From the NCBI GenBank assembly GCA_031413715.1, contig JANOFO010000010.1, positions 302 to 64,301 of the forward strand: a stretch of DNA of 64,000 nucleotides, read 5' to 3'. The position numbers and the translations under genes are program-made. The notes under the pieces were generated by a model, which did not search any database, had not been told where the DNA came from, and saw only the letters and a program-made list of their open reading frames with translations. The DNA is from Minisyncoccota bacterium. Lineage in GTDB: Bacteria; Patescibacteriota; Minisyncoccia; Phycocordibacterales; UBA9973. This document shows, piece after piece, positions 25,565 through 34,128 of this stretch (its first letter is position 1; every line of letters begins with the position of its first letter).

Positions 25565-28441
25565 TTATAATCCTGTCACTACTTTAAGCATATGCCGTGT
25601 CTTCGAGCCGACGATACCGCTCGGTGGCTTAACAAAATATTTCAACTGGAATGCACGGACCGATACTTGTGTTTGCCTGCCATATTTTCCATCAATGATG
25701 TCCTGGTGACTTCCCTCATCGGCAAGGAGTTGTTGGAGACTCTTGACCGCTTCGCCAGCATCTCCTGGTTTCAAGTCTTTTTCGAGCACTCGAGCATCAC
25801 CCGGGATATCAAGGGTGACAAGGGATTGTGATACGAGGTTAAGTTGTTTCTGAGTTGCTACATCTGTGACACCAGTGATCGGCAGTTTGTATTTTGACTG
25901 AAATTGTTTCAAACCTTTTTCTGTCACGGCACCAAACTTTCCGTCGATAATAGTTGTCGGATAGAACTCGCCATCTAATGCAAGTACATGCTGAACATGT
26001 TCGATTTCGATATGAGTATCGCCTTTTTCCCAAACAGTTGTGAAATGTTCTTCTACGCCGAGTGGCATGATAACCGGTGTCTCACGCAACACCACTTGTC
26101 CAACTGATCCGCCACCCGATGATTTTCCGGAAGAACCTCCTCGTGAAGAAGAAAGTACTGCAATCGGTGCAAGTGAGACGCGGACTGATTCTGAATACGT
26201 TCTAGCGTGGTCGTATGAATAGAATGCGTAATAGTAGGTGGTGCCATTGTTCACATCCGTGTCAGTGAATGTTTCGCTGTCGCTTTCAAAAACGACGGTG
26301 CCATCCGCGGGCGTTGTCGGATAATTTCCCGCTTTCTTAACAATGATTGTTCGAACAAAATCGGCTTCATTTGGATTGTTCCAGGTGAAGACAATCTGCT
26401 CATCGAGGCCGGTGGCATTCACGAATGTCGGATGTGCGATTGGAAGTGAGGTTGTCGTTTCGGGAATGAACGGTTCTGCTGTTCCAGAATCTCCTCCTGT
26501 TGTGGAATTTCCGCTTTCAACAACCAACCCGTTGCCAGAATTGTCATTGATTATTTCGTTGAGAGAATCATTAGGCGATCCCACTGGAACCGAAGCAAGA
26601 GTCGTCGCTGAAACGACATTAGAAAGAACTGACCAGTCGCCAGTCTCGTACTTTTGTTTGAGAGCGAAATAATACATGGTGTTTGGACTAAGTCCTGCAA
26701 CCAGATATGTTCGCGCGGTTCCAGATGGCGAAAGTTCTGGGTATATAATCGGCGTTAGTTGTGCGGATATTGCAGCGTTCCAATTCGATTCAGTGATTAG
26801 ACTCGTGCTGTAACGCACTTCAGTGAACATACCCGCGTCGGAATCTGCTGATGAAGTGTTCCATGAAAGCTGTGCCGATGTGGCGTCATGTCCAGAAACG
26901 GAAAGGTTCGAGATCGCGCTCGGTGCAGAAACTGTTGTTGTGGCATGCGTCGTCGTGAAAGTATGATCATCCGAATAAGTAATGTCGCCTGCCACAGTTA
27001 CTGCCTTGATGCGATAGTGGTACGTCGTACTCGGGACGAGATCGTCCAAGCCAACACTCTGAGAAGACTGACTTGTTTGCATTGTTGTCGTCTGTCCGTA
27101 TTGGGTTGAGATTCCGTATTCAACGTGTCCTGTCGCAGCTATGTCCGTCGTCCATGAGACATTTGCGCTCGTAGTACTGACATTACTCGAAGAAACCGAG
27201 AGAATAGTTGCCGGAGTGGTGACGAAGATCGGCACGATAAGCGTCGAGAATTCATGAAGGTTCGACACTGTTGCAACGCTTGCGGGAGTGGGCTTGGACT
27301 TCACGCGGAAGTAATAACTAGTGTCGGGTGAAAGATTTGAAATGGTAACTGAATGGTTTGTGGTGAGATTTGAATTGAGAGTCGTATGCAAGCCAAGATT
27401 GATATTGTTGCCATATTCCGCTTGCGAATCGCTTAGTAGATCCGTCGTCCATGTGATTGTTGCAGATGTTTCCCCGATAGTCGAAGCCTCGACGCTTGAG
27501 ACAAGGAGTGTCGGCGCGATCAGTGTTCCTGTCGGAGCTGTTACGATTGTCTCACCTGTTCCCACAAGTGCCGCTGTGGTGAATGTCTCATCAGGCGTGT
27601 ACGCCGTATTTCCGATACCGTCGTGCGACGTAATGCGGTAGTGATACGTCGTGTTCGGTAACAAACTTGAGAGAGTAACGCTGTGAGCTGGTGCGTAGTC
27701 ACTGCTTGCATTAACCGTTGTGCCATAGTTCATTGTTGTGCCATATTCCACATACCCGTTAGCAACCTGGTCGGTTGTCCACGATATTCCGGCAGAAGTG
27801 GTCGTGACAGGAGAAACCGAAACTGTGAGGATGGTCGGCGGATTCGTATCAGCTTGCACCACTTCTATCGCGGTCGTGAACGAATGACCACAAGAATCCG
27901 AGGTATTATTGAAAAGGTCAGTCGCGTCAATACAGTAATAATAGGTGGTTGCTGGAGATAAGTTGAGCATCGTCGCTACATGAACAAGAGCACCGCCTGT
28001 CCCAAGAGTTACTGTTGATCCATAACTTGTCGTCGTTCCATAACGAAAATGAGAAACTGCGAGCTCGTTTGTCACCCATGCGACGGTTGCCTCAGTCGGC
28101 AACAGCGATGCCGAGACAATATCGGTTATGACCGGCGGTGTCGTATCGAAAACTGTTATTGTAGGAACAGTCGTCTCTGATCCTGTTGATGTATTAGCAG
28201 AGACAGTTGTATCCCCAACAGTGGTTGAGGTCGTATCAGTACTCGTCGTCGTTTCCGTCGTCACTGTAGGAGTAGGTTCTGGTGCCGGAGGTGTAGCCTC
28301 GACAACTGTCGGCGCGGAATTGGTCGTCCCTACATCCACTTCACCGAGTGCGAGCGCCGGAGCGATCGGCGCGAAAAGAAAAGTTATGATAATAATGAAA
28401 GATGAAAACGATTGTAATTTTTTCATAATGCATTGGGCCAA
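25565..28441 (-). CDS. large secreted surface protein: Thr-rich linker, multiple Fn3/Ig-like repeats (recurrent TTYHYRI), C-terminal tandem peptidoglycan-binding (PG_binding_1-like) domains
   Basis: Signal peptide; repeated ...TTYHYRI / TTYYYC blocks; C-terminal ITGVTDVATQKQL and DGKYGRQTQVSVRAFQLKY. Confidence 0.55.
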   Translation of the reverse strand: MAQCIMKKLQSFSSFIIIITFLFAPIAPALALGEVDVGTTNSAPTVVEATPPAPEPTPTVTTETTTSTDTTSTTVGDTTVSANTSTGSETTVPTITVFDTTPPVITDIVSASLLPTEATVAWVTNELAVSHFRYGTTTSYGSTVTLGTGGALVHVATMLNLSPATTYYYCIDATDLFNNTSDSCGHSFTTAIEVVQADTNPPTILTVSVSPVTTTSAGISWTTDQVANGYVEYGTTMNYGTTVNASSDYAPAHSVTLSSLLPNTTYHYRITSHDGIGNTAYTPDETFTTAALVGTGETIVTAPTGTLIAPTLLVSSVEASTIGETSATITWTTDLLSDSQAEYGNNINLGLHTTLNSNLTTNHSVTISNLSPDTSYYFRVKSKPTPASVATVSNLHEFSTLIVPIFVTTPATILSVSSSNVSTTSANVSWTTDIAATGHVEYGISTQYGQTTTMQTSQSSQSVGLDDLVPSTTYHYRIKAVTVAGDITYSDDHTFTTTHATTTVSAPSAISNLSVSGHDATSAQLSWNTSSADSDAGMFTEVRYSTSLITESNWNAAISAQLTPIIYPELSPSGTARTYLVAGLSPNTMYYFALKQKYETGDWSVLSNVVSATTLASVPVGSPNDSLNEIINDNSGNGLVVESGNSTTGGDSGTAEPFIPETTTSLPIAHPTFVNATGLDEQIVFTWNNPNEADFVRTIIVKKAGNYPTTPADGTVVFESDSETFTDTDVNNGTTYYYAFYSYDHARTYSESVRVSLAPIAVLSSSRGGSSGKSSGGGSVGQVVLRETPVIMPLGVEEHFTTVWEKGDTHIEIEHVQHVLALDGEFYPTTIIDGKFGAVTEKGLKQFQSKYKLPITGVTDVATQKQLNLVSQSLVTLDIPGDARVLEKDLKPGDAGEAVKSLQQLLADEGSHQDIIDGKYGRQTQVSVRAFQLKYFVKPPSGIVGSKTRHMLKVVTGL

Positions 28442-28680: not shown

Positions 28681-29754
28681 ATGAAATTACATTGTCGTAT
28701 CTGCGGAACACCGATGCAAAAATGGGGCCATACGAGGCAAGGCAAGCCCCGATTTTTTTGTCCAAACTGCAAAAAGACGGCGACTCCCCAGCGTGATGAT
28801 GTCGAGCTTCGACAAACGGTTCATGAGATGAAAAAATGGCTTGGCGGAAAAGAAAGTCTGAGCCACATGGCTGCGCAATCTCATGTTACTCGCCAAGCAT
28901 TATGGAAACGCTTCCACCCTGTTATGGAAGCTGCTTCTATAGAACCTGATATGCCAGACCTGATCAAAACAAAAATGTTGATCGTTGATGGAACATATAT
29001 CCATGGACATACACTCTGTGCTTTGATCGCCGTCGACGAGTTCGACAAGATTTACTGGAAATTTGCATCATATGAATCATGCGCTGTGTGGATGAAATTT
29101 CTATCCTCGTTCGTCGAACCTGAGATCATTATCATGGATGGGCAGAAAGGATTGTTTTTAGCTGCCAAAACTCTATGGCCAAAAGTTGCGATTCAGCGAT
29201 GCCAATTTCATCTTGTCGCATTCGCTATTCAATATATCGGCAGACGCCCAAAAGAAAAAGTTGGTCAAGCGTTAATGGATATCCTCTATACACTCAAAGA
29301 TGCGAAAACAAAAGAGAGTCGTGATTTATGGATACGTTCATATCGAAAATGGGAAGAGACATATGAGATGTTAATTTCAGCGAAGGATACTAATAAGCAG
29401 TACCTTCGTCCTCGATTGCGTGGTGCACGATTAATTATTCGAAGAGCTCTTCCATACCTATTCACATTTCTTGATCATCCGGGATCACCCAATACTACTA
29501 ATTTAGTTGAAGGTTGGATTAATGGCGCTATGGCTGAAGCGTTGCGACTTCATCGAGGATTACGAATTAATGAAAAGAAAACGCTTGCAACCGTCATCCT
29601 TTCTGATCTGATACGCAAAAAGACGAGGGATAAATCTGTGATGGAAAGATTGAAATACGCTGCTCGCGTACGCAATGCACGAAGATTTGGAAAAAGGAAA
29701 TCGAGAAGTAATATAATACAACCTGCACTTGTTAATACAATGAAGTTGTTCTAG
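28681..29754 (+). CDS. DDE transposase with N-terminal zinc ribbon (ISL3/IS256-like catalytic signature)
   Basis: CRICG...CPNC ribbon; LIVDGTY, IIMDGQKG, and WPKVAIQRCQFHL resembling the IS256/ISL3 'P.A..QRC.FH' motif. Confidence 0.55.
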   Translation: MKLHCRICGTPMQKWGHTRQGKPRFFCPNCKKTATPQRDDVELRQTVHEMKKWLGGKESLSHMAAQSHVTRQALWKRFHPVMEAASIEPDMPDLIKTKMLIVDGTYIHGHTLCALIAVDEFDKIYWKFASYESCAVWMKFLSSFVEPEIIIMDGQKGLFLAAKTLWPKVAIQRCQFHLVAFAIQYIGRRPKEKVGQALMDILYTLKDAKTKESRDLWIRSYRKWEETYEMLISAKDTNKQYLRPRLRGARLIIRRALPYLFTFLDHPGSPNTTNLVEGWINGAMAEALRLHRGLRINEKKTLATVILSDLIRKKTRDKSVMERLKYAARVRNARRFGKRKSRSNIIQPALVNTMKLF

Positions 29755-29875: not shown

Positions 29876-30298
29876 TGTATCAGGATCTTCTACTTAGGTC
29901 TTCTAAAGAAGCCAGACCATATATTCATTCAAAACAGAGAAAAGTACTTATATATTAAGTATTTTTCTCTATCTTGACCAACACTTTAGTTGACTTAGGC
30001 CTAAGGACTAGATAAAAACAAACTAACTCCAGATTTCTCTGGAGCTGATTTGCCATTATCAATAACCCTACAAAACTATGAACCACATGAAGGGATAAGT
30101 CTGCCGACAACTTACCCCATGTTTAGCATAGAAATTATTTCAAAAGAAGATAAGGCAGGGTAATTTGCGCAATATGCAAACTCTGGAGATTAAGTAATCT
30201 TTTTTAAAGATTTAGATATTTAGGTCTGCCCGATACGGTAATAAAACTTGACAAATAGAAAATAGTTTGTTAGAATGCAAGTAGCCAATTGGTTTTTA

Positions 30299-31345
30299 CT
30301 AATTAATCCACAAACCAAAATAATTTCTTAACCTCATCGATAGCTTGTATGCATTCGCATGAGACAGTACTCCCAGATATGAATGGAGTGTCGCTACTAT
30401 CTTCTCCTTTTCGACCTTTCCTTTCGTGTAATCTTTAATCTTAGCTTCAAACTTTCTAATAACTCGTTTTTTAGTTCTCTTTCGCAGTAAAGTATGATTT
30501 GGGAAAACCACATATCCTAAGAAATCTACTCCTTTTGCGTACGTTAATATCTCAACTTTGTTCGGATGCAGATTCACTCCTAATCTATCTCTCAAAAAAA
30601 CATTCATTGGCTTGATAAGTTTCTCAAGATACTCCTTATCCCTTGAAACAATTATAAAATCATCAGTATATCGGGCATAATAACGAACCTTTAGAATGTG
30701 CTTCATATATTGATCAAACTCATTCATGTATACGTTGGCAAAAAGCTGTGAAGTTAAGTTGCCTATCGGCACTCCTTTCTTCTTGAATAGATCTGATTGC
30801 GTTCCACTGTAGCTTTCAACAAGATTATCTAAAAGCCATAATAAGTCAGCATCCTTAATCCTCCTTCGTAGAATTGACAACAGAATATCATGATCAATCG
30901 AATCAAAGAATTTCCTCACATCGCATTTGAGCGCATAGCATGTCTTGGTATTATTCTTGCTCTCTTTGCGCAGCATTCCTTGAACCACTTCCACTCCTTT
31001 ATGCGATCCCTTGCCAACACGGCAAGAGAATGATTCAGGAATGAAAGTAGGATCAAACACATGATTGATCGTAGACATAATTGCATGATGCAGAACTCTA
31101 TCACGAACAGTCGCTTTGTGAATATGCCGCAGCTTCGGATCGGAGATATAAAATCCGGTATACCCGGAATGCACATACGTTTTAGTTTTTAACTCCCTTG
31201 ATAATTGAAAAATATTATGTTCCAACTCCCTCTCGAATAAAAGGACATCGGGTTTTCTACCTTTACCAACTCTAAATTCCTTCCATGCTTGAAATAGCGT
31301 TTCAGGTTGAACAATCTTATTAAATAAATCTCGATATATAATCAT
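30299..31345 (-). CDS. DGR reverse transcriptase
   Basis: RT motifs present, including KFFDSIDHD and YTDDFIIV (YxDD); the DGR-diagnostic IGNLTSQLFANVY replaces the group-II QGxxxSP motif; start at MIIYRDLFN. Confidence 0.8.
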   Translation of the reverse strand: MIIYRDLFNKIVQPETLFQAWKEFRVGKGRKPDVLLFERELEHNIFQLSRELKTKTYVHSGYTGFYISDPKLRHIHKATVRDRVLHHAIMSTINHVFDPTFIPESFSCRVGKGSHKGVEVVQGMLRKESKNNTKTCYALKCDVRKFFDSIDHDILLSILRRRIKDADLLWLLDNLVESYSGTQSDLFKKKGVPIGNLTSQLFANVYMNEFDQYMKHILKVRYYARYTDDFIIVSRDKEYLEKLIKPMNVFLRDRLGVNLHPNKVEILTYAKGVDFLGYVVFPNHTLLRKRTKKRVIRKFEAKIKDYTKGKVEKEKIVATLHSYLGVLSHANAYKLSMRLRNYFGLWIN

Positions 31346-31696
31346 ATGAATGAAAACGACATACCAGTGCTGAATAAATCGTACGAACTCTACAAGTTGT
31401 TCCACGAATATCGTAAGGTTGTTCCCAAACAAGATCGCTTCACGATTTATGAACGAAGTGAGCATGTCATGCTTGGAACTATAGAACTTCTACTCGAAGC
31501 AAGCTATGGAGACAAAGCGAGGAAGTTGGTAACACTTGAAAAAGTAAGCGTGAAACTCAATGTGCTTCGTTTTCTTATTAGGTTAATGAAAGAAACAAAG
31601 ACATTTGATACCAAGAAATATATAGCACTACAAGCACTCATCGACGAGATCGGTCGCATGACCGGCGGATGGATGCGATCGCTCATAAACAAATAG
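31346..31696 (+). CDS. avd: DGR accessory variability determinant Avd (four-helix-bundle family)
   Basis: 116 aa; YELYKLFHEYRKVVPKQDRFTI...LRFLIRL...LIDEIGRMTGGWMRSL matches the Avd / 23S-IVS four-helix-bundle pattern; divergent from the RT. Confidence 0.65.
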   Translation: MNENDIPVLNKSYELYKLFHEYRKVVPKQDRFTIYERSEHVMLGTIELLLEASYGDKARKLVTLEKVSVKLNVLRFLIRLMKETKTFDTKKYIALQALIDEIGRMTGGWMRSLINK

Positions 31697-31719
31697 AATA
31701 AATAGAAAAGAGAATATTG

Positions 31720-31754
31720 CTACAAAAGGTATCCGAGAGGATACCTTTTGTAGT
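31720..31754. other. 15-bp perfect stem-loop (ctacaaaaggtatcc / ggataccttttgtag) between avd and TR
   Basis: Seen in sequence; lies 3' of TR on the minus strand. Confidence 0.4.
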
Positions 31755-31770
31755 GCAAAAAGAGATACTT

Positions 31771-31888
31771 CGGAGAACCCGGACGCAGAACCGTAATTGG
31801 CATTCGCATTGGACACATCGTTCGCGTCCATCTTAACCTTGTCGTCATTGAAGTTGACGTTCGGAGCATGACCGAAGACACCATCGCC
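31771..31888 (-). repeat. DGR template repeat (TR), 118 bp
   Basis: Aligns to 32272-32389; all 17 mismatches are T on the plus strand (A on the minus strand) in this copy against C/A/G in the other. Confidence 0.8.
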
Positions 31889-32174
31889 ACCCGGAATTTA
31901 CTCCCATCAATCCGAGCCACCAAAAATTGAAACAGTATATCGCATCTGATTCTTTCTTTTGAATTTAATTCGACAACACGCGAGGTGCGTTTGTCTTTGA
32001 TAGGAGTAAGCAGTATCTCATTTACTCGGGTTCGCTCTCGCAAGCCGTAGCCGGCGGGATTCTGACTCGTTTCTCGCAAAGAGAAAGAGTTCGGCGACAG
32101 TCATCCGTAGACGGCTGTGCATGAGCCTATACTCACTGTCACTATAGCAGATTTCAGTAGTAAAAATAGTAAAA

Positions 32175-32205
32175 GGGTTATCCGATTGTGGATAACCCTT
32201 TTTTT
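32175..32205. terminator. hairpin gggttatcc-gattgt-ggataaccc followed by T7, bidirectional terminator between the target gene and TR
   Basis: Perfect 9-bp stem with T-run on the plus side and T-rich sequence on the minus side. Confidence 0.4.
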
Positions 32206-32257
32206 AAAAAATTCGAATTCAAGATTAAAGAAATCAAAAGATCCGAGAACTCAATAT

Positions 32258-33193
32258 TCAAGATCCAATCGCGGAGAACCCGGACGCAGAACCGAAATCG
32301 GCAAACGCATAGGACACACCGTACGCGCCCATCCCAACCTCGCCGTCATGGAAGAAGACGCGCGGAGCATGACCGAAGACACCATCGCCCTTATCACTGT
32401 ACTCATCACCGGGGCAATCAATCCAAAGATCGTTGACATTGCTCAGGCGTTCAGGATGAGTGAAGATTAATGTCAGCACTTCGTATGCGCCGAGGCCAAA
32501 CTCACCGAACATAACTTCCCGGGCTCTTCTGACACTTTTTCCGGCATGATTGATGCCGAACTGAAACGGAACGAGCAGAACTCCACTCGGACGGCCTTGT
32601 GCGATCCATAATGCTTCTGTGTTCTCAGTAAGCTCACTTCCACGGCGATAATATTGCCGGCTCCATTTGCCTTCACGGTAATCTTGGAAATTTCCTCTGG
32701 ATTTTTTAATAAATCCCTGGATACGCTCCATCGGTTTTCCGTAATCCATAGCCGGATCATTTTCATGGTTGGTAAACATGCTTTCATCAAGCACGATTAC
32801 GCCCAGTCCTTCACCGAGGGATTTCTGGGAAACCATAACTTTCTGCTTTTCGGTAAGCGTCCAATTCACTTCCCGTCCCCAATCGTAAAATTGAAGAAGG
32901 GTAATTTGCAAATTAACGGGTTTAGGAACCCGATAGCCGGAAAGATAACCGTAGGCCGAGGTGACCTGCTCTTTGATGTACTTGTCCGGGGTGGCCATGT
33001 CCCGCAGGATTTCTCTGGCAGCTTTTTCCAAACGATTTTTAAAATCACTTGGTTTCATAATGATACGTTGCTGGATCAGATCTCGTGAGAGATTTGATTC
33101 TGTTGTAACCACAGCTTTAACAGCTTGTCTGCCAAATTCTACAATGCTGTCGCGTTGGTCAGGTGTCATGGATGTCATCTTGGTAGTGATCAT
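32258..33193 (-). CDS. DGR target (variable) protein with C-terminal VR, probably a C-type-lectin/FGE-like fold
   Basis: VR occupies the last ~40 codons and ends 12 nt before the stop. Confidence 0.65.
   Translation of the reverse strand: MITTKMTSMTPDQRDSIVEFGRQAVKAVVTTESNLSRDLIQQRIIMKPSDFKNRLEKAAREILRDMATPDKYIKEQVTSAYGYLSGYRVPKPVNLQITLLQFYDWGREVNWTLTEKQKVMVSQKSLGEGLGVIVLDESMFTNHENDPAMDYGKPMERIQGFIKKSRGNFQDYREGKWSRQYYRRGSELTENTEALWIAQGRPSGVLLVPFQFGINHAGKSVRRAREVMFGEFGLGAYEVLTLIFTHPERLSNVNDLWIDCPGDEYSDKGDGVFGHAPRVFFHDGEVGMGAYGVSYAFADFGSASGFSAIGS
32272..32389 (-). repeat. DGR variable repeat (VR)
   Basis: 118-bp near-copy of TR differing only at TR adenines. Confidence 0.8.
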
Positions 33194-33419: not shown

Positions 33420-33434
33420 TGTGATCCCGGCAGG
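33420..33434. repeat. 15-nt direct repeat of the tRNA-Arg(GCG) 3' end (tgtgatcccggcagg)
   Basis: Identical to 33681-33695. Confidence 0.5.
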
Positions 33435-33682
33435 GTAATCTCGCCTACGGCGCGTGATTGGTGGTTTGTAAACAAACAACACCAATCTTTCGCTTCCTGC
33501 ACGCGACTGAAGCAGTTCAGTCGCTCGGGAACGATTTACTTGTGACTACAAATATTTCCATCTCGTCAGCCGGAAATTTCGCAGCCCGCCCCTCGTGGTT
33601 TTGCGTGGTCGCAAAACATCACTGCGGTCATCACAAAGTGTAAAAGACCTCCGCAGGGAGCTCTTTTTGAATACGCGCTTTG

Positions 33683-33754
33683 TGATCCCGGCAGGAATCG
33701 AACCTGCATCGCAACTTCCGCAAAGTTGCGTCCTATCCATTGAACGACGGGACC
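33683..33754 (-). tRNA. tRNA-Arg (anticodon GCG, unusual for bacteria)
   Basis: Acceptor ggtcccg/cgggatc (one G-U), D-arm gttc-aatggata-ggac, anticodon stem caact/agttg with loop ttgcgga, T-arm gcagg-ttcgatt-cctgc; 72 nt. Confidence 0.55.
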
Positions 33755-33757
33755 AAT

Positions 33758-33997
33758 TTACTTTAACTTATTTTTTAAATATCTTCTCCCTGCGGCACTT
33801 TTCCAATACTTTTCTTTCTTTACAGCTTCTTCTTTTGTCTCACATTGCTCGTGATAGGCAATTTCAAAAGGAATATAGTTCTTGATTGATTTTGTCATTC
33901 CTGAATTATGTTGAGATAATCGTACTTTTAAGTCTTCAGAAAATCCCTTGTAATAGAAATTCTTGATCTTACTTTTCAAAACATAAACATAATACAT
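33758..33997 (-). CDS. small GIY-YIG nuclease domain protein (UPF0213-like)
   Basis: YYVYVLKS...YYKGFSEDLKVRLSQHNSG is a classic GIY-YIG motif; 79 aa. Confidence 0.7.
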   Translation of the reverse strand: MYYVYVLKSKIKNFYYKGFSEDLKVRLSQHNSGMTKSIKNYIPFEIAYHEQCETKEEAVKKEKYWKSAAGRRYLKNKLK

Positions 33998-34003
33998 ATG
34001 TGT

Positions 34004-34070
34004 GTCCTATCCCCGCCCGACTGAACGATCACTCCAGTCGTTCGGGCGGGCATTGAACGACGGGACCAAT
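34004..34070. repeat. duplicated 5' portion of tRNA-Arg(GCG) (9 nt + 19 nt) interrupted by a 39-nt GC-rich hairpin insertion
   Basis: gtcctatcc[ccgcccgactgaacgatcactccagtcgttcgggcgggc]attgaacgacgggaccaat compared with 33730-33757. Confidence 0.5.
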
Positions 34071-34128
34071 ATGGTTTAATCTATCTCAAAAGAAAGATAT
34101 TAGCAAGTTCTTTTATAGACTCTCGCTT

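Follow-up and report, generated by a model that had tools for sequence, protein, structure and literature searches.

The window, a stretch of 64,000 nucleotides from a Minisyncoccota bacterium contig, carries a complete and apparently active diversity-generating retroelement (DGR) of the type found in the candidate phyla radiation (CPR)/Patescibacteria. The explanation that best accounts for the locus as a whole, and which we hold with considerable confidence, is a DGR of architecture B3 whose RNA is structured and transcribed from a promoter of its own. An avd gene on the opposite strand is what CPR DGRs normally have, and the layout has been catalogued before; it is not new and is of no importance in itself. 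The less ordinary part, as far as sequence indicates, is a TR RNA that would have its own promoter and begin with a conserved, structured leader of 240 nt pairing with the segment just after TR. This RNA anatomy is the interest of the locus and deserves follow-up.

Among the features by which DGRs are recognized are a reverse transcriptase (RT) motif of the form [I/L/V]GxxxSQ (QGxxxSP in group II intron RTs), an adenine-only pair of template repeat (TR) and variable repeat (VR) whose VR lies towards the 3' end of an ORF, and the presence of Avd. All three are found here. The RT (348 aa, minus strand, 30299-31345) matches Pfam RVT_1 with an E-value of 7.7e-27 and contains the motif PIGNLTSQ, which is invariant in 30 relatives. 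Its sequence places it in a large Patescibacteria/CPR clade, with 7376 homologues at E <= 1e-20, and all of those bearing a source name are CPR taxa. The original prediction assigned avd (accessory variability determinant) to the strand opposite the target gene, TR and RT, and profile searches of the plus-strand ORF in question (116 aa, 31346-31696) bear this out: it scores 63.5 bits against Pfam bAvd (PF22296; cut-off 40, E 2.9e-17) and 79.1 bits against NCBIfam DivGenRetAVD, just below the cut-off of 80. A retron identity was considered and rejected, as the score on the NCBIfam retron model is 63.5 bits (cut-off 235) and the RT motif, Avd and TR/VR pair are those of a DGR.

The target gene, taken from the ORF list, encodes 311 aa on the minus strand (32258-33193) and carries VR in frame at its 3' end, corresponding to the C-terminus of a protein that matches no Pfam family even at E <= 10. 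In DGRs generally, the variable protein bears its VR within a C-type-lectin or Ig fold. VR (118 nt, 32272-32389) stops 13 nt short of the target stop codon and is an ungapped match, at an offset of 501 nt, to TR (118 nt, 31771-31888); both are read on the minus strand. TR is rich in AAC and AAT codons, and its final 23 nt form an A-free, GC-rich, IMH-like 3' end that is identical in VR. The two repeats differ at 17 positions, 17/17 of them TR adenines and all at codon position 1 or 2. In 52 related loci, as in the window, TR is situated just upstream of the avd stop codon and the mismatches are adenine-specific, with at most one exception.

Along the minus strand come first TR (31888-31771), then avd, encoded on the plus strand (31346-31696), and last RT (31345-30299). 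This core order, TR-(avd)-RT with avd reversed in between, is architecture B3 as defined by Wu et al. (2018; NAR 46:11; PMC5758913), where it accounts for 90% of their CPR DGRs. Order, orientation and host group are the same there as here, and the gene layout does not differ. The suggestion that the locus might be an unusual or new architectural variant is therefore set aside, the more so as avd is opposite to RT and adjoins it in 77 of 77 informative related loci. These loci come from many studies, and all those fetched are from CPR. The sole locus with avd on the RT strand (L036) is uninformative, with no TR detectable within 9 kb.

The minus strand downstream of VR contains a motif array, a terminator-like hairpin and a promoter-like box. 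The array consists of YTTG(R) motifs spaced at 7-8 nt (32203-32271); it fills the interval between the end of the VR homology and the hairpin and includes the target stop codon. HTTG occurs 4.5 times in the 75 nt after VR, versus 1.6 times after TR and 1.33 times in random windows, and over 53 loci the commonest distance from one TTG to the next is 7-8 nt. The hairpin was originally described as a 9-bp GC stem with a T-run about 70 nt 3' of VR, and this description holds, with the core at 32175-32198 beginning 74 nt past the VR end. Counting the A/T extensions, it has 13 pairs (32171-32202) with T runs on both strands, and the terminator scan accepts it as intrinsic-terminator-like under a rule requiring a GC-containing stem followed by a T run (13 pairs, tail ACTATTTTTA). 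In 75% of the 53 loci a hairpin of at least 8 bp is found no more than 120 nt past VR; 27 of 45 have a T-rich tail, and the stems covary in an alignment of the spacer. Beyond the hairpin is an extended -10 promoter-like box, TGCTATAGT (32141-32149), an instance of a conserved TGnTAnnnT found in 36 of 53 loci versus 15% of background windows and located mostly 222-260 nt upstream of TR (range 222-329). Because the target gene is followed by a putative terminator and then by this conserved box, a transcript of TR distinct from that of the target gene is very probable, as had been proposed. Transcription of the target gene (33193 to 32258) would stop at its own terminator (32202-32171), and a separate promoter (extended -10 box, 32149-32141) would drive the DGR RNA.

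Downstream of the box and upstream of TR lies a covarying leader RNA of ~240 nt, all elements of which are on the minus strand. Its 5' domain (32036-32129) comprises helices H0-H3. H0 (32129-32125/32095-32091), H1 (32118-32113/32102-32097) and H3 (32059-32054/32041-32036) covary in a sequence-only alignment (A3), and the loops of H1 and H3 have a YACGG motif in common; H2 (32089-32081/32075-32066) was identified by eye only and is left out of the pair counts. RNAalifold runs on slices of the MAFFT alignment do not recover H0, H1 or H2, and H0 and H1 were defined by hand and then pair-counted. The 3' domain (31894-32022) is built on a long-range helix found by RNAalifold, P5 (32009-31999/31908-31898), which encloses hairpins P6 and P7 together with conserved AAUWAAAUWCA and GGUG motifs, and the domain stops ~10 nt before TR. 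RNAalifold gives it 31 pairs, each with compensatory changes. The same is true of all 42 counted leader pairs (H0, H1, H3 and the 3' domain), for which 87.9% of cells are paired, where shuffles give 57% and slid controls 39-47%; the covariation score is 0.79 versus 0.14-0.20 in slid controls. A covariance model (R1) has one match in the window, at this domain (74.2 bits, E 2.5e-13). Of 80 loci, 73 have a single match each, among them 21 loci that had no part in building the model. Wherever R1 matches, the leader adjoins TR.

An Rfam search of the hairpins and leader returns no named family, the only hits being sub-threshold RT-7 and RT-9 matches and chance miRNA-like matches. RT-7 (RF03028) reaches 22 bits against a gathering threshold of 116.8 through a local match to its first hairpin only (window 32004-32066), and it has no match at the gathering threshold in 16 relatives. 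RT-9 (RF03080; threshold 46.1 bits) has no match in the window and a sub-threshold match of 30.3 bits in the leader of one relative (L042). Both families, reported by Weinberg et al. (2017; PMC5737381), are likewise structured RNAs adjoining RT genes, and leader helix H3 is a match, below threshold, to the RT-7 5' hairpin (CCAGAGU..stem..GuCAaGgC..stem..AGaGUG), but only local parts of either family align and the scores are far under the gathering thresholds. In that study some RT motifs are speculated to work in DGRs, and RT-7 and RT-9 are given no assigned function or link to TR.

On the other side of TR, a perfect 15-bp hairpin with a UCUC tetraloop and no bulges (31720-31753) begins 18 nt after TR and lies 23 nt after the avd stop codon. 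The perfect stem had been predicted correctly, and only its end, given as 31754, was one base too far. Its membership of a conserved TR-RNA feature, raised as a point to check, is supported by the relatives, in which a stem of at least 8 bp follows TR in 46 of 53 loci (87%) versus 10.7% of control windows (60 nt each, n = 2120). The stem begins at a median of +14 after TR, and stem sequences are unrelated between loci. Among 47 relatives, 34 have a hairpin that overlaps avd at the ORF's 3' end, so the hairpin tracks TR and not the avd stop. In 35 of the 47, the stem is followed on the TR-sense strand by a T-rich tail, with 5 or more T among the next 10 nt. The terminator scan does not list the window hairpin, because its T4/U4 run is inside the stem.

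This hairpin may be an Avd-binding stem-loop, a bidirectional terminator or both. Handa et al. (2024; bioRxiv 10.1101/2023.10.23.563531) characterize the Avd-binding stem-loop as lying just downstream of TR with a stem of ~9-11 bp and usually a tetraloop; it is found just 3' of TR in Bordetella and predicted in 207 of 278 DGRs, including those of CPR. The hairpin here fits in position and shape (15-bp stem, tetraloop). It differs in that the window stem is fully paired, whereas in Bordetella flipped-out bases mediate the contacts made by the Avd pentamer. The Avd-binding and terminator roles are compatible with each other. A narrower alternative, in which the hairpin is only a bidirectional intrinsic terminator between convergent avd and the TR unit and has no role in an RT-Avd RNP, would suit a stem that reads AAAA-GGTATCC/GGATACC-TTTT on both strands, the nearby avd stop upstream on the plus strand and the T-rich tails of the relatives. 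We consider it rather unlikely: where the hairpin is inside the avd ORF it is no avd terminator, an A-rich tract precedes it in just 5 of the 47 relatives, the conserved feature is its distance from TR, and a stem-loop at the same position binds Avd in the sole solved DGR RNP. Our preferred reading is that the hairpin is the counterpart of the Avd-binding stem-loop, by analogy with Bordetella, and that it probably also ends most DGR-RNA transcripts and may, at this locus, end the convergent avd mRNA.

Between TR and the hairpin, 2 nt past the end of the TR/VR homology, is an 8-nt strand, a' (AGUAUCUC, minus strand, 31762-31769). Its perfect complement, strand a (GAGAUACU, minus strand, 32012-32019), stands 2 nt upstream of the 5' strand of P5, and the two are paired in the MFE fold. 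Locus-specific complementarity between these strands is 7.23 versus 5.48 +/- 0.16 in 1000 cross-locus permutations, a signal ~11 standard deviations over the permutations, and negative controls are flat. In this clade the covarying partner of the post-TR sequence is ~130-140 nt upstream of TR, within the leader. The register of the duplex relative to P5 differs by subgroup, with a 2-nt linker here and ~6 nt in a distant group, which weakens a single mechanistic reading of the duplex. A second pairing, of the conserved P7 loop (GAGAGUAUUCAA) with a CUCUC box after TR, was tried and rejected, with 5.70 versus 5.92 permuted and hence no excess.

The position of this partner bears on the alternative that the functional priming and RT-binding RNA is 3' of TR, in antisense avd, as in the Bordetella phage, and that the leader is an unrelated 5' UTR or sRNA. 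Such an organization would agree with the putative cPRT Stop duplexes that Handa et al. (2024; bioRxiv 10.1101/2023.10.23.563531), using 40 nt before and 100 nt after TR, report for 207 of the 278 Avd-containing DGRs in their set, which includes CPR. It would also agree with the rarity of extended -10 boxes upstream of RT (6 of 51 loci), so that antisense avd is probably transcribed. However, the antisense avd segment +45..+145 has no locus-specific complementarity to the TR 3' end (z = 0.1) or to the 40 nt upstream of TR (z = 0.8), and it is the leader segment, at z ~11, that pairs with the post-TR segment. The leader, moreover, occurs once per locus and always beside TR. A comparison of post-TR +1..+45 with the 40 nt upstream of TR likewise gives no signal (z = -1.3), and no partner of the post-TR sequence is detectable downstream in this clade. 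We therefore regard a 3' location of the functional RNA as quite improbable.

In the mechanism that we propose, the DGR RNA would consist of the ~240-nt structured leader, TR, strand a' (8 nt, paired with the leader) and the 15-bp hairpin. P5, ending ~10 nt before TR, and a:a', directly after TR, would clamp both TR ends, and roles of these helices in priming and stopping are suggested by the Bordetella duplexes. RT-Avd would copy TR with adenine mutagenesis, and the cDNA would replace VR. Components, coordinates, conservation and RNA helices are observed here, while Avd binding, termination, RT read-through and any part that the helices play in priming or stopping are argued from analogy. A more general proposal, which we offer tentatively as one possibility, is that CPR B3 DGRs use a circularly permuted DGR RNA, in which one strand, forming both the start/primer duplex at the TR 3' end and the stop duplex just 5' of TR, has moved from the 3' spacer, its place in Bordetella, to the 240-nt structured 5' leader. 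RT-binding elements would then also be part of the leader, the Avd-binding hairpin and its U tract would form the 3' end of the RNA and the 3' side would be freed for inverted avd. The VR-specific TTG array (7-8 nt), and not a hairpin adjacent to the IMH, would mark the recipient site.

Comparison with the DGR of Bordetella phage BPP-1 (Handa et al., 2018; 2024) shows where the two agree. Both have RT and Avd, adenine-specific transfer from TR to VR, an A-free, GC-rich 3' homology and a tetraloop stem-loop just 3' of TR, which in BPP-1 is the Avd-binding element; the post-TR hairpin here has its analogue in Sp3-33 of the Bordetella RNA. The TR ends are held in both by two neighbouring duplexes whose partner strands are 2 nt apart (Sp47-56 / G57 C58 / Sp59-70 in Bordetella; 32019-32012 / GC / 32009-31999 here), so that P5 and a:a' mirror the adjacent template:primer and 'cPRT Stop' duplexes. 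The differences are that avd is inverted here, that the strand pairing with both TR flanks is in the 240-nt 5' leader instead of the 140-nt 3' spacer and that the VR hairpin is ~70 nt away instead of next to the IMH, with the TTG array following VR. Retron msr-msd RNA shares a topology of 5' strand, structured RNA, template and complementary closing 3' strand (like a1/a2). This likeness is one of topology only, as the locus here has a DGR-clade RT, Avd and TR/VR, and no branching G or msDNA is implied. The accessible portion of Wu et al. (2018; PMC5758913) makes no mention of the abutting starts, leader RNA, closing duplex or TTG array, and some of the RNA features may already be in the main paper on CPR DGRs, by Paul et al. 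(2017; Nat Microbiol).

Reverse transcription in DGRs has been modelled mechanistically for a single phage element only, and the case for conservation of that model in CPR was built on no more than 40 nt of sequence before TR and 100 nt after it. If the partner is indeed upstream, in the leader, the most numerous DGRs in nature would organize their template RNA differently, and the orphan Rfam "RT" motifs would gain a function. The leader, TR and hairpin together also provide a concrete construct for reconstitution and for retargetable mutagenesis tools.

The RT and avd genes diverge from abutting starts within the palindrome CATATG (31343-31348), where 31343-31345, read in reverse complement, gives the RT ATG and 31346-31348 is the ATG of avd. 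This arrangement, with no intergenic promoter space, is as originally described. The palindromic junction alone speaks for an assembly inversion at 31345/31346, a scenario with practically no chance of being correct given an independent Logan contig that is 100% identical over 29972-32294 and spans the junction, the orientation common to all 77 informative loci and the published B3 architecture. Because that contig is identical and the 77 related loci are arranged alike, the junction is not an assembly artefact.

Abutting starts imply that the expression signals of each gene would be inside the other gene or further upstream. The only candidates of the promoter scan upstream of avd are at 31189-31218 and 30927-30954. 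The sequence TATAAT at 31337-31342 was rejected as an avd promoter, as it is too near the ATG and its predicted start site falls after the start codon. For RT, the rarity of extended -10 boxes upstream of the gene suggests that transcription probably continues through antisense avd; an RT mRNA that reads through antisense avd, as had been suggested, is plausible, and RT is probably made by read-through of the DGR RNA. A counterpoint is that a terminator-like hairpin with a U tract is in the way in most relatives. The gap between the RT and avd start codons ranges from -36 to +88 nt in the relatives. The CATATG junction itself recurs in four of them (L001, L004, L005 and L039), and overlapping starts in CATG are found in L002, L055 and L077.

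A complete DGR is present at the locus, as established by ORF listing, profile searches and repeat alignment in the window. The RT gene (30299-31345, minus strand, 348 aa) matches Pfam RVT_1 with an E-value of 7.7e-27 and encodes the DGR-type motif PIGNLTSQ. The plus-strand ORF at 31346-31696 (116 aa) scores 63.5 bits against Pfam bAvd (cut-off 40) and 79.1 bits against NCBIfam DivGenRetAVD (cut-off 80), which bears out its proposed identity as avd, and the start codons of the two genes abut within CATATG (31343-31348). TR (31771-31888) and VR (32272-32389), both 118 nt long and on the minus strand, align without gaps, with 17 mismatches. Every mismatch is at a TR adenine and affects codon position 1 or 2 in the 311-aa target ORF (32258-33193), a restriction by which the element looks active. 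A hairpin with a perfect 15-bp stem and a 4-nt loop follows TR at 31720-31753, and a second hairpin follows VR, with a 9-bp core (32175-32198) that reaches 13 pairs with its A/T extension and is terminator-like in a terminator scan. The features described in the original prediction are confirmed in the sequence; only the end of the post-TR hairpin had been placed one base too far.

The RT has 7376 homologues at E <= 1e-20, and those with a named source come from Nomurabacteria, Paceibacterota or Minisyncoccia. Gene order is compared across 80 related genomic loci, whose labels are nearly all Patescibacteria/CPR. In 77/77 informative loci, defined by an upstream side that is present and contains Avd, the avd gene adjoins RT directly and runs on the other strand. 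In 52 loci and the window, a TR whose mismatches are adenine-specific is positioned just upstream of the avd stop codon. The opposed orientation is thus as predicted, but its description as an unusual layout or architectural variant does not hold: in the cassette classification by Wu et al. (2018; PMC5758913) it corresponds to architecture B3, TR-(avd)-RT with parentheses marking the reverse strand, which dominates in CPR DGRs and makes up 90% of the CPR set in that study. The flagged feature is therefore real but is a known and dominant CPR architecture, and both hairpins can be explained by known types of element. An assembly inversion at the RT/avd junction, which would also place avd on the opposite strand, is excluded by an independent Logan contig identical to the window across 29972-32294. 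Among relatives, the RT and avd start codons are separated by distances of -36 to +88 nt; the distance is within 4 nt in 12/51 cases (window included), below 22 nt in 31/51, and exactly 0, giving CATATG, in the window and in related loci L001, L004, L005 and L039. The inverted avd characterizes the family; fusion of the start codons recurs in it without being fixed.

As no intergenic space is available, signals for the expression of avd and RT must be located within the partner gene. Upstream of avd, where the sequence is antisense RT, extended -10 boxes are enriched (22/51 loci); upstream of RT, where it is antisense avd, they are rare (6/51 loci versus 15% background). These motif counts fit the predicted read-through of RT transcription across antisense avd, although the terminator-like hairpin after TR would limit it. 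No Shine-Dalgarno sequence was found before either start codon in the window.

The hairpin after VR is best read as the target gene's terminator. Comparable hairpins occur after VR in 75% of loci, start at a median of +59, and carry T-rich tails in 27/45. Directly 3' of this putative terminator, an extended -10 box (TGnTAnnnT) is found in 36/53 loci versus 15% of background windows, mostly 222-260 nt upstream of TR (range 222-329); the window copy is TGCTATAGT (32149-32141). The two signals together support the earlier proposal of a TR transcript separate from that of the target. The 70-nt stretch that links VR to the target terminator (32203-32271, minus strand) carries an array of YTTG(R) motifs at 7-8-nt spacing, and the same array occupies the equivalent position across the 53 related loci. 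HTTG averages 4.5 copies per 75 nt after VR versus 1.33 in random windows, at least five copies per 75 nt are present in 49% of loci versus 1.1% of random windows, and CTTG is enriched 5.8-fold. The array is absent after TR (1.6 HTTG per 75 nt) and so sets VR, the recipient, apart from TR, the donor, as a recipient-site signal would need to.

The ~240 nt from the extended -10 box to TR form a conserved multi-helix RNA rather than a spacer, based on a plain MAFFT alignment of 53 loci. RNAalifold identifies 31 leader pairs, each with compensatory changes, and two helices added by hand before counting bring the set to 42 pairs. Across these 42 pairs, 87.9% of cells are paired versus 57% in column shuffles and 39-47% with slid partners, and the covariation score is 0.79 versus 0.14-0.20 for slid partners. 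A covariance model of the leader 3' domain has a single match in the window (31894-32022, 74.2 bits, E 2.5e-13) and matches 73/80 loci once each, including 21 outside its training set. In three loci (L019, 311-417; L062, 239-375; L036, 5509-5625) the match is on the strand opposite to RT. In L036, avd follows RT on the RT strand and a TR was not found. All three look like rearrangements of the cassette. A search of the leader against Rfam returns sub-threshold matches only: the first hairpin of RT-7 resembles leader helix H3 (22 bits, threshold 116.8) and RT-9 resembles the leader of one related locus, L042 (30.3 bits, threshold 46.1). Both are orphan 'RT motifs' from the study by Weinberg et al. 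(2017), which ties RT-10 to the Bordetella spacer and guesses that other RT motifs act in DGRs. The matches suggest that RT-7 and RT-9 may be DGR leaders.

In the minimum free energy fold of the window RNA, GAGAUACU (32019-32012) pairs with AGUAUCUC (31769-31762). Two nucleotides separate the leader strand of this closing duplex from the 5' strand of the long-range helix P5, which follows it, and another two separate TR from the second strand downstream. The best-scoring pairing of these segments reaches 7.23 across 53 loci, versus a mean of 5.48 +/- 0.16 and a maximum of 5.96 in 1000 cross-locus permutations. The sequences diverge widely between loci (for example AGAAAAAGAA/UUCUUUUUCU, GAGAUGGAA/UUCCAUCUC, AGACAAGAC/GUCUUGUCU and UAUAGACAUU/AAUGUCUAUA). 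In the same cross-locus test, no signal arises when other leader windows serve as partners, or when the antisense-avd region is set against either the 3' end or the 40-nt upstream flank of TR (z from -1.4 to 0.8). Helix P5 comes to within ~10 nt of the start of TR with its 3' strand, so that TR is predicted to be held at both ends by two helices with adjoining partner strands in the leader. The Bordetella RNP likewise has two adjacent duplexes 2 nt apart, template:primer (Sp47-56 with TR118-129) and cPRT Stop (Sp59-70 with a segment just upstream of TR), but there both partner strands are in the 3' spacer rather than the 5' leader. We infer that the CPR RNA reaches a Bordetella-like geometry from the 5' side, effectively a circular permutation, and its topology is retron-like. 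The helices themselves are directly supported by the comparisons, while priming and stopping roles for P5 and the closing duplex would follow by analogy. This RNA organization (own promoter, structured leader, leader:post-TR duplex and TTG array) was not found described in the literature available to us, a scope that excludes Paul et al. (2017).

The post-TR hairpin is conserved with TR: a stem of at least 8 bp lies within 60 nt 3' of TR in 46/53 cases versus 10.7% of 2120 control windows, with a median start of +14 and stem sequences unrelated from locus to locus. In the nearest relatives it sits between TR and the avd stop codon. With TR ending as close as -9 to +30 nt to the avd stop, the hairpin overlaps avd at its 3' end in 34/47 relatives, and therefore tracks TR rather than avd. 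Cryo-EM by Handa et al. (2024) showed that the first structure downstream of the Bordetella TR, Sp3-33, is an 11-bp stem capped by a tetraloop and gripped by all five Avd protomers, and such stem-loops were predicted 'just downstream of TR' in 207/278 Avd-containing DGRs, CPR included. The window hairpin matches Sp3-33 in position and shape and fits a candidate Avd-binding stem-loop. It also looks like a terminator in 35/47 relatives, where a T-rich tail (typically GAGUUUUGUUUU) follows on the TR-sense strand. The window hairpin has a U4 run within the stem and reads identically on both strands; it could terminate the DGR RNA as well as the convergent avd mRNA, but is not called by the terminator scan. 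In most of the distant relatives (L027, L037, L039, L045, L078 and ~30 more loci), the post-TR hairpin and its U tract, CUCYCC...GGRGAG UUUUGUUUU, fall in the 45 nt that follow TR and lie antisense within the last ~10 avd codons, so that one piece of DNA encodes both the C-terminal tail of Avd and the DGR RNA 3' end.

Several other features surround the cassette. A GIY-YIG ORF (33758-33997, minus strand, 79 aa; Pfam E 1.9e-14) is flanked by 34-nt direct repeats (33738-33771 and 34051-34084, 85% identical) that contain the 5' end of tRNA-Arg(gcg) (33682-33754), and together these look like a small mobile insertion beside the tRNA. An exact 15-nt repeat, TGTGATCCCGGCAGG, at 33420-33434 and 33681-33695 (261 nt apart) is found just upstream of the target gene; it duplicates the tRNA-Arg 3' end and may be a scar of integration into the tRNA. 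About 550 nt past the 3' end of RT is a Mutator/MULE-family transposase ORF (28681-29754, plus strand, 357 aa; Pfam Transposase_mut, E 2.3e-09). The 958-aa Thr/Ser-rich ORF at 25565-28441 (minus strand) combines a hydrophobic segment at its N-terminus with repeated ~90-aa modules and looks like a large surface protein.
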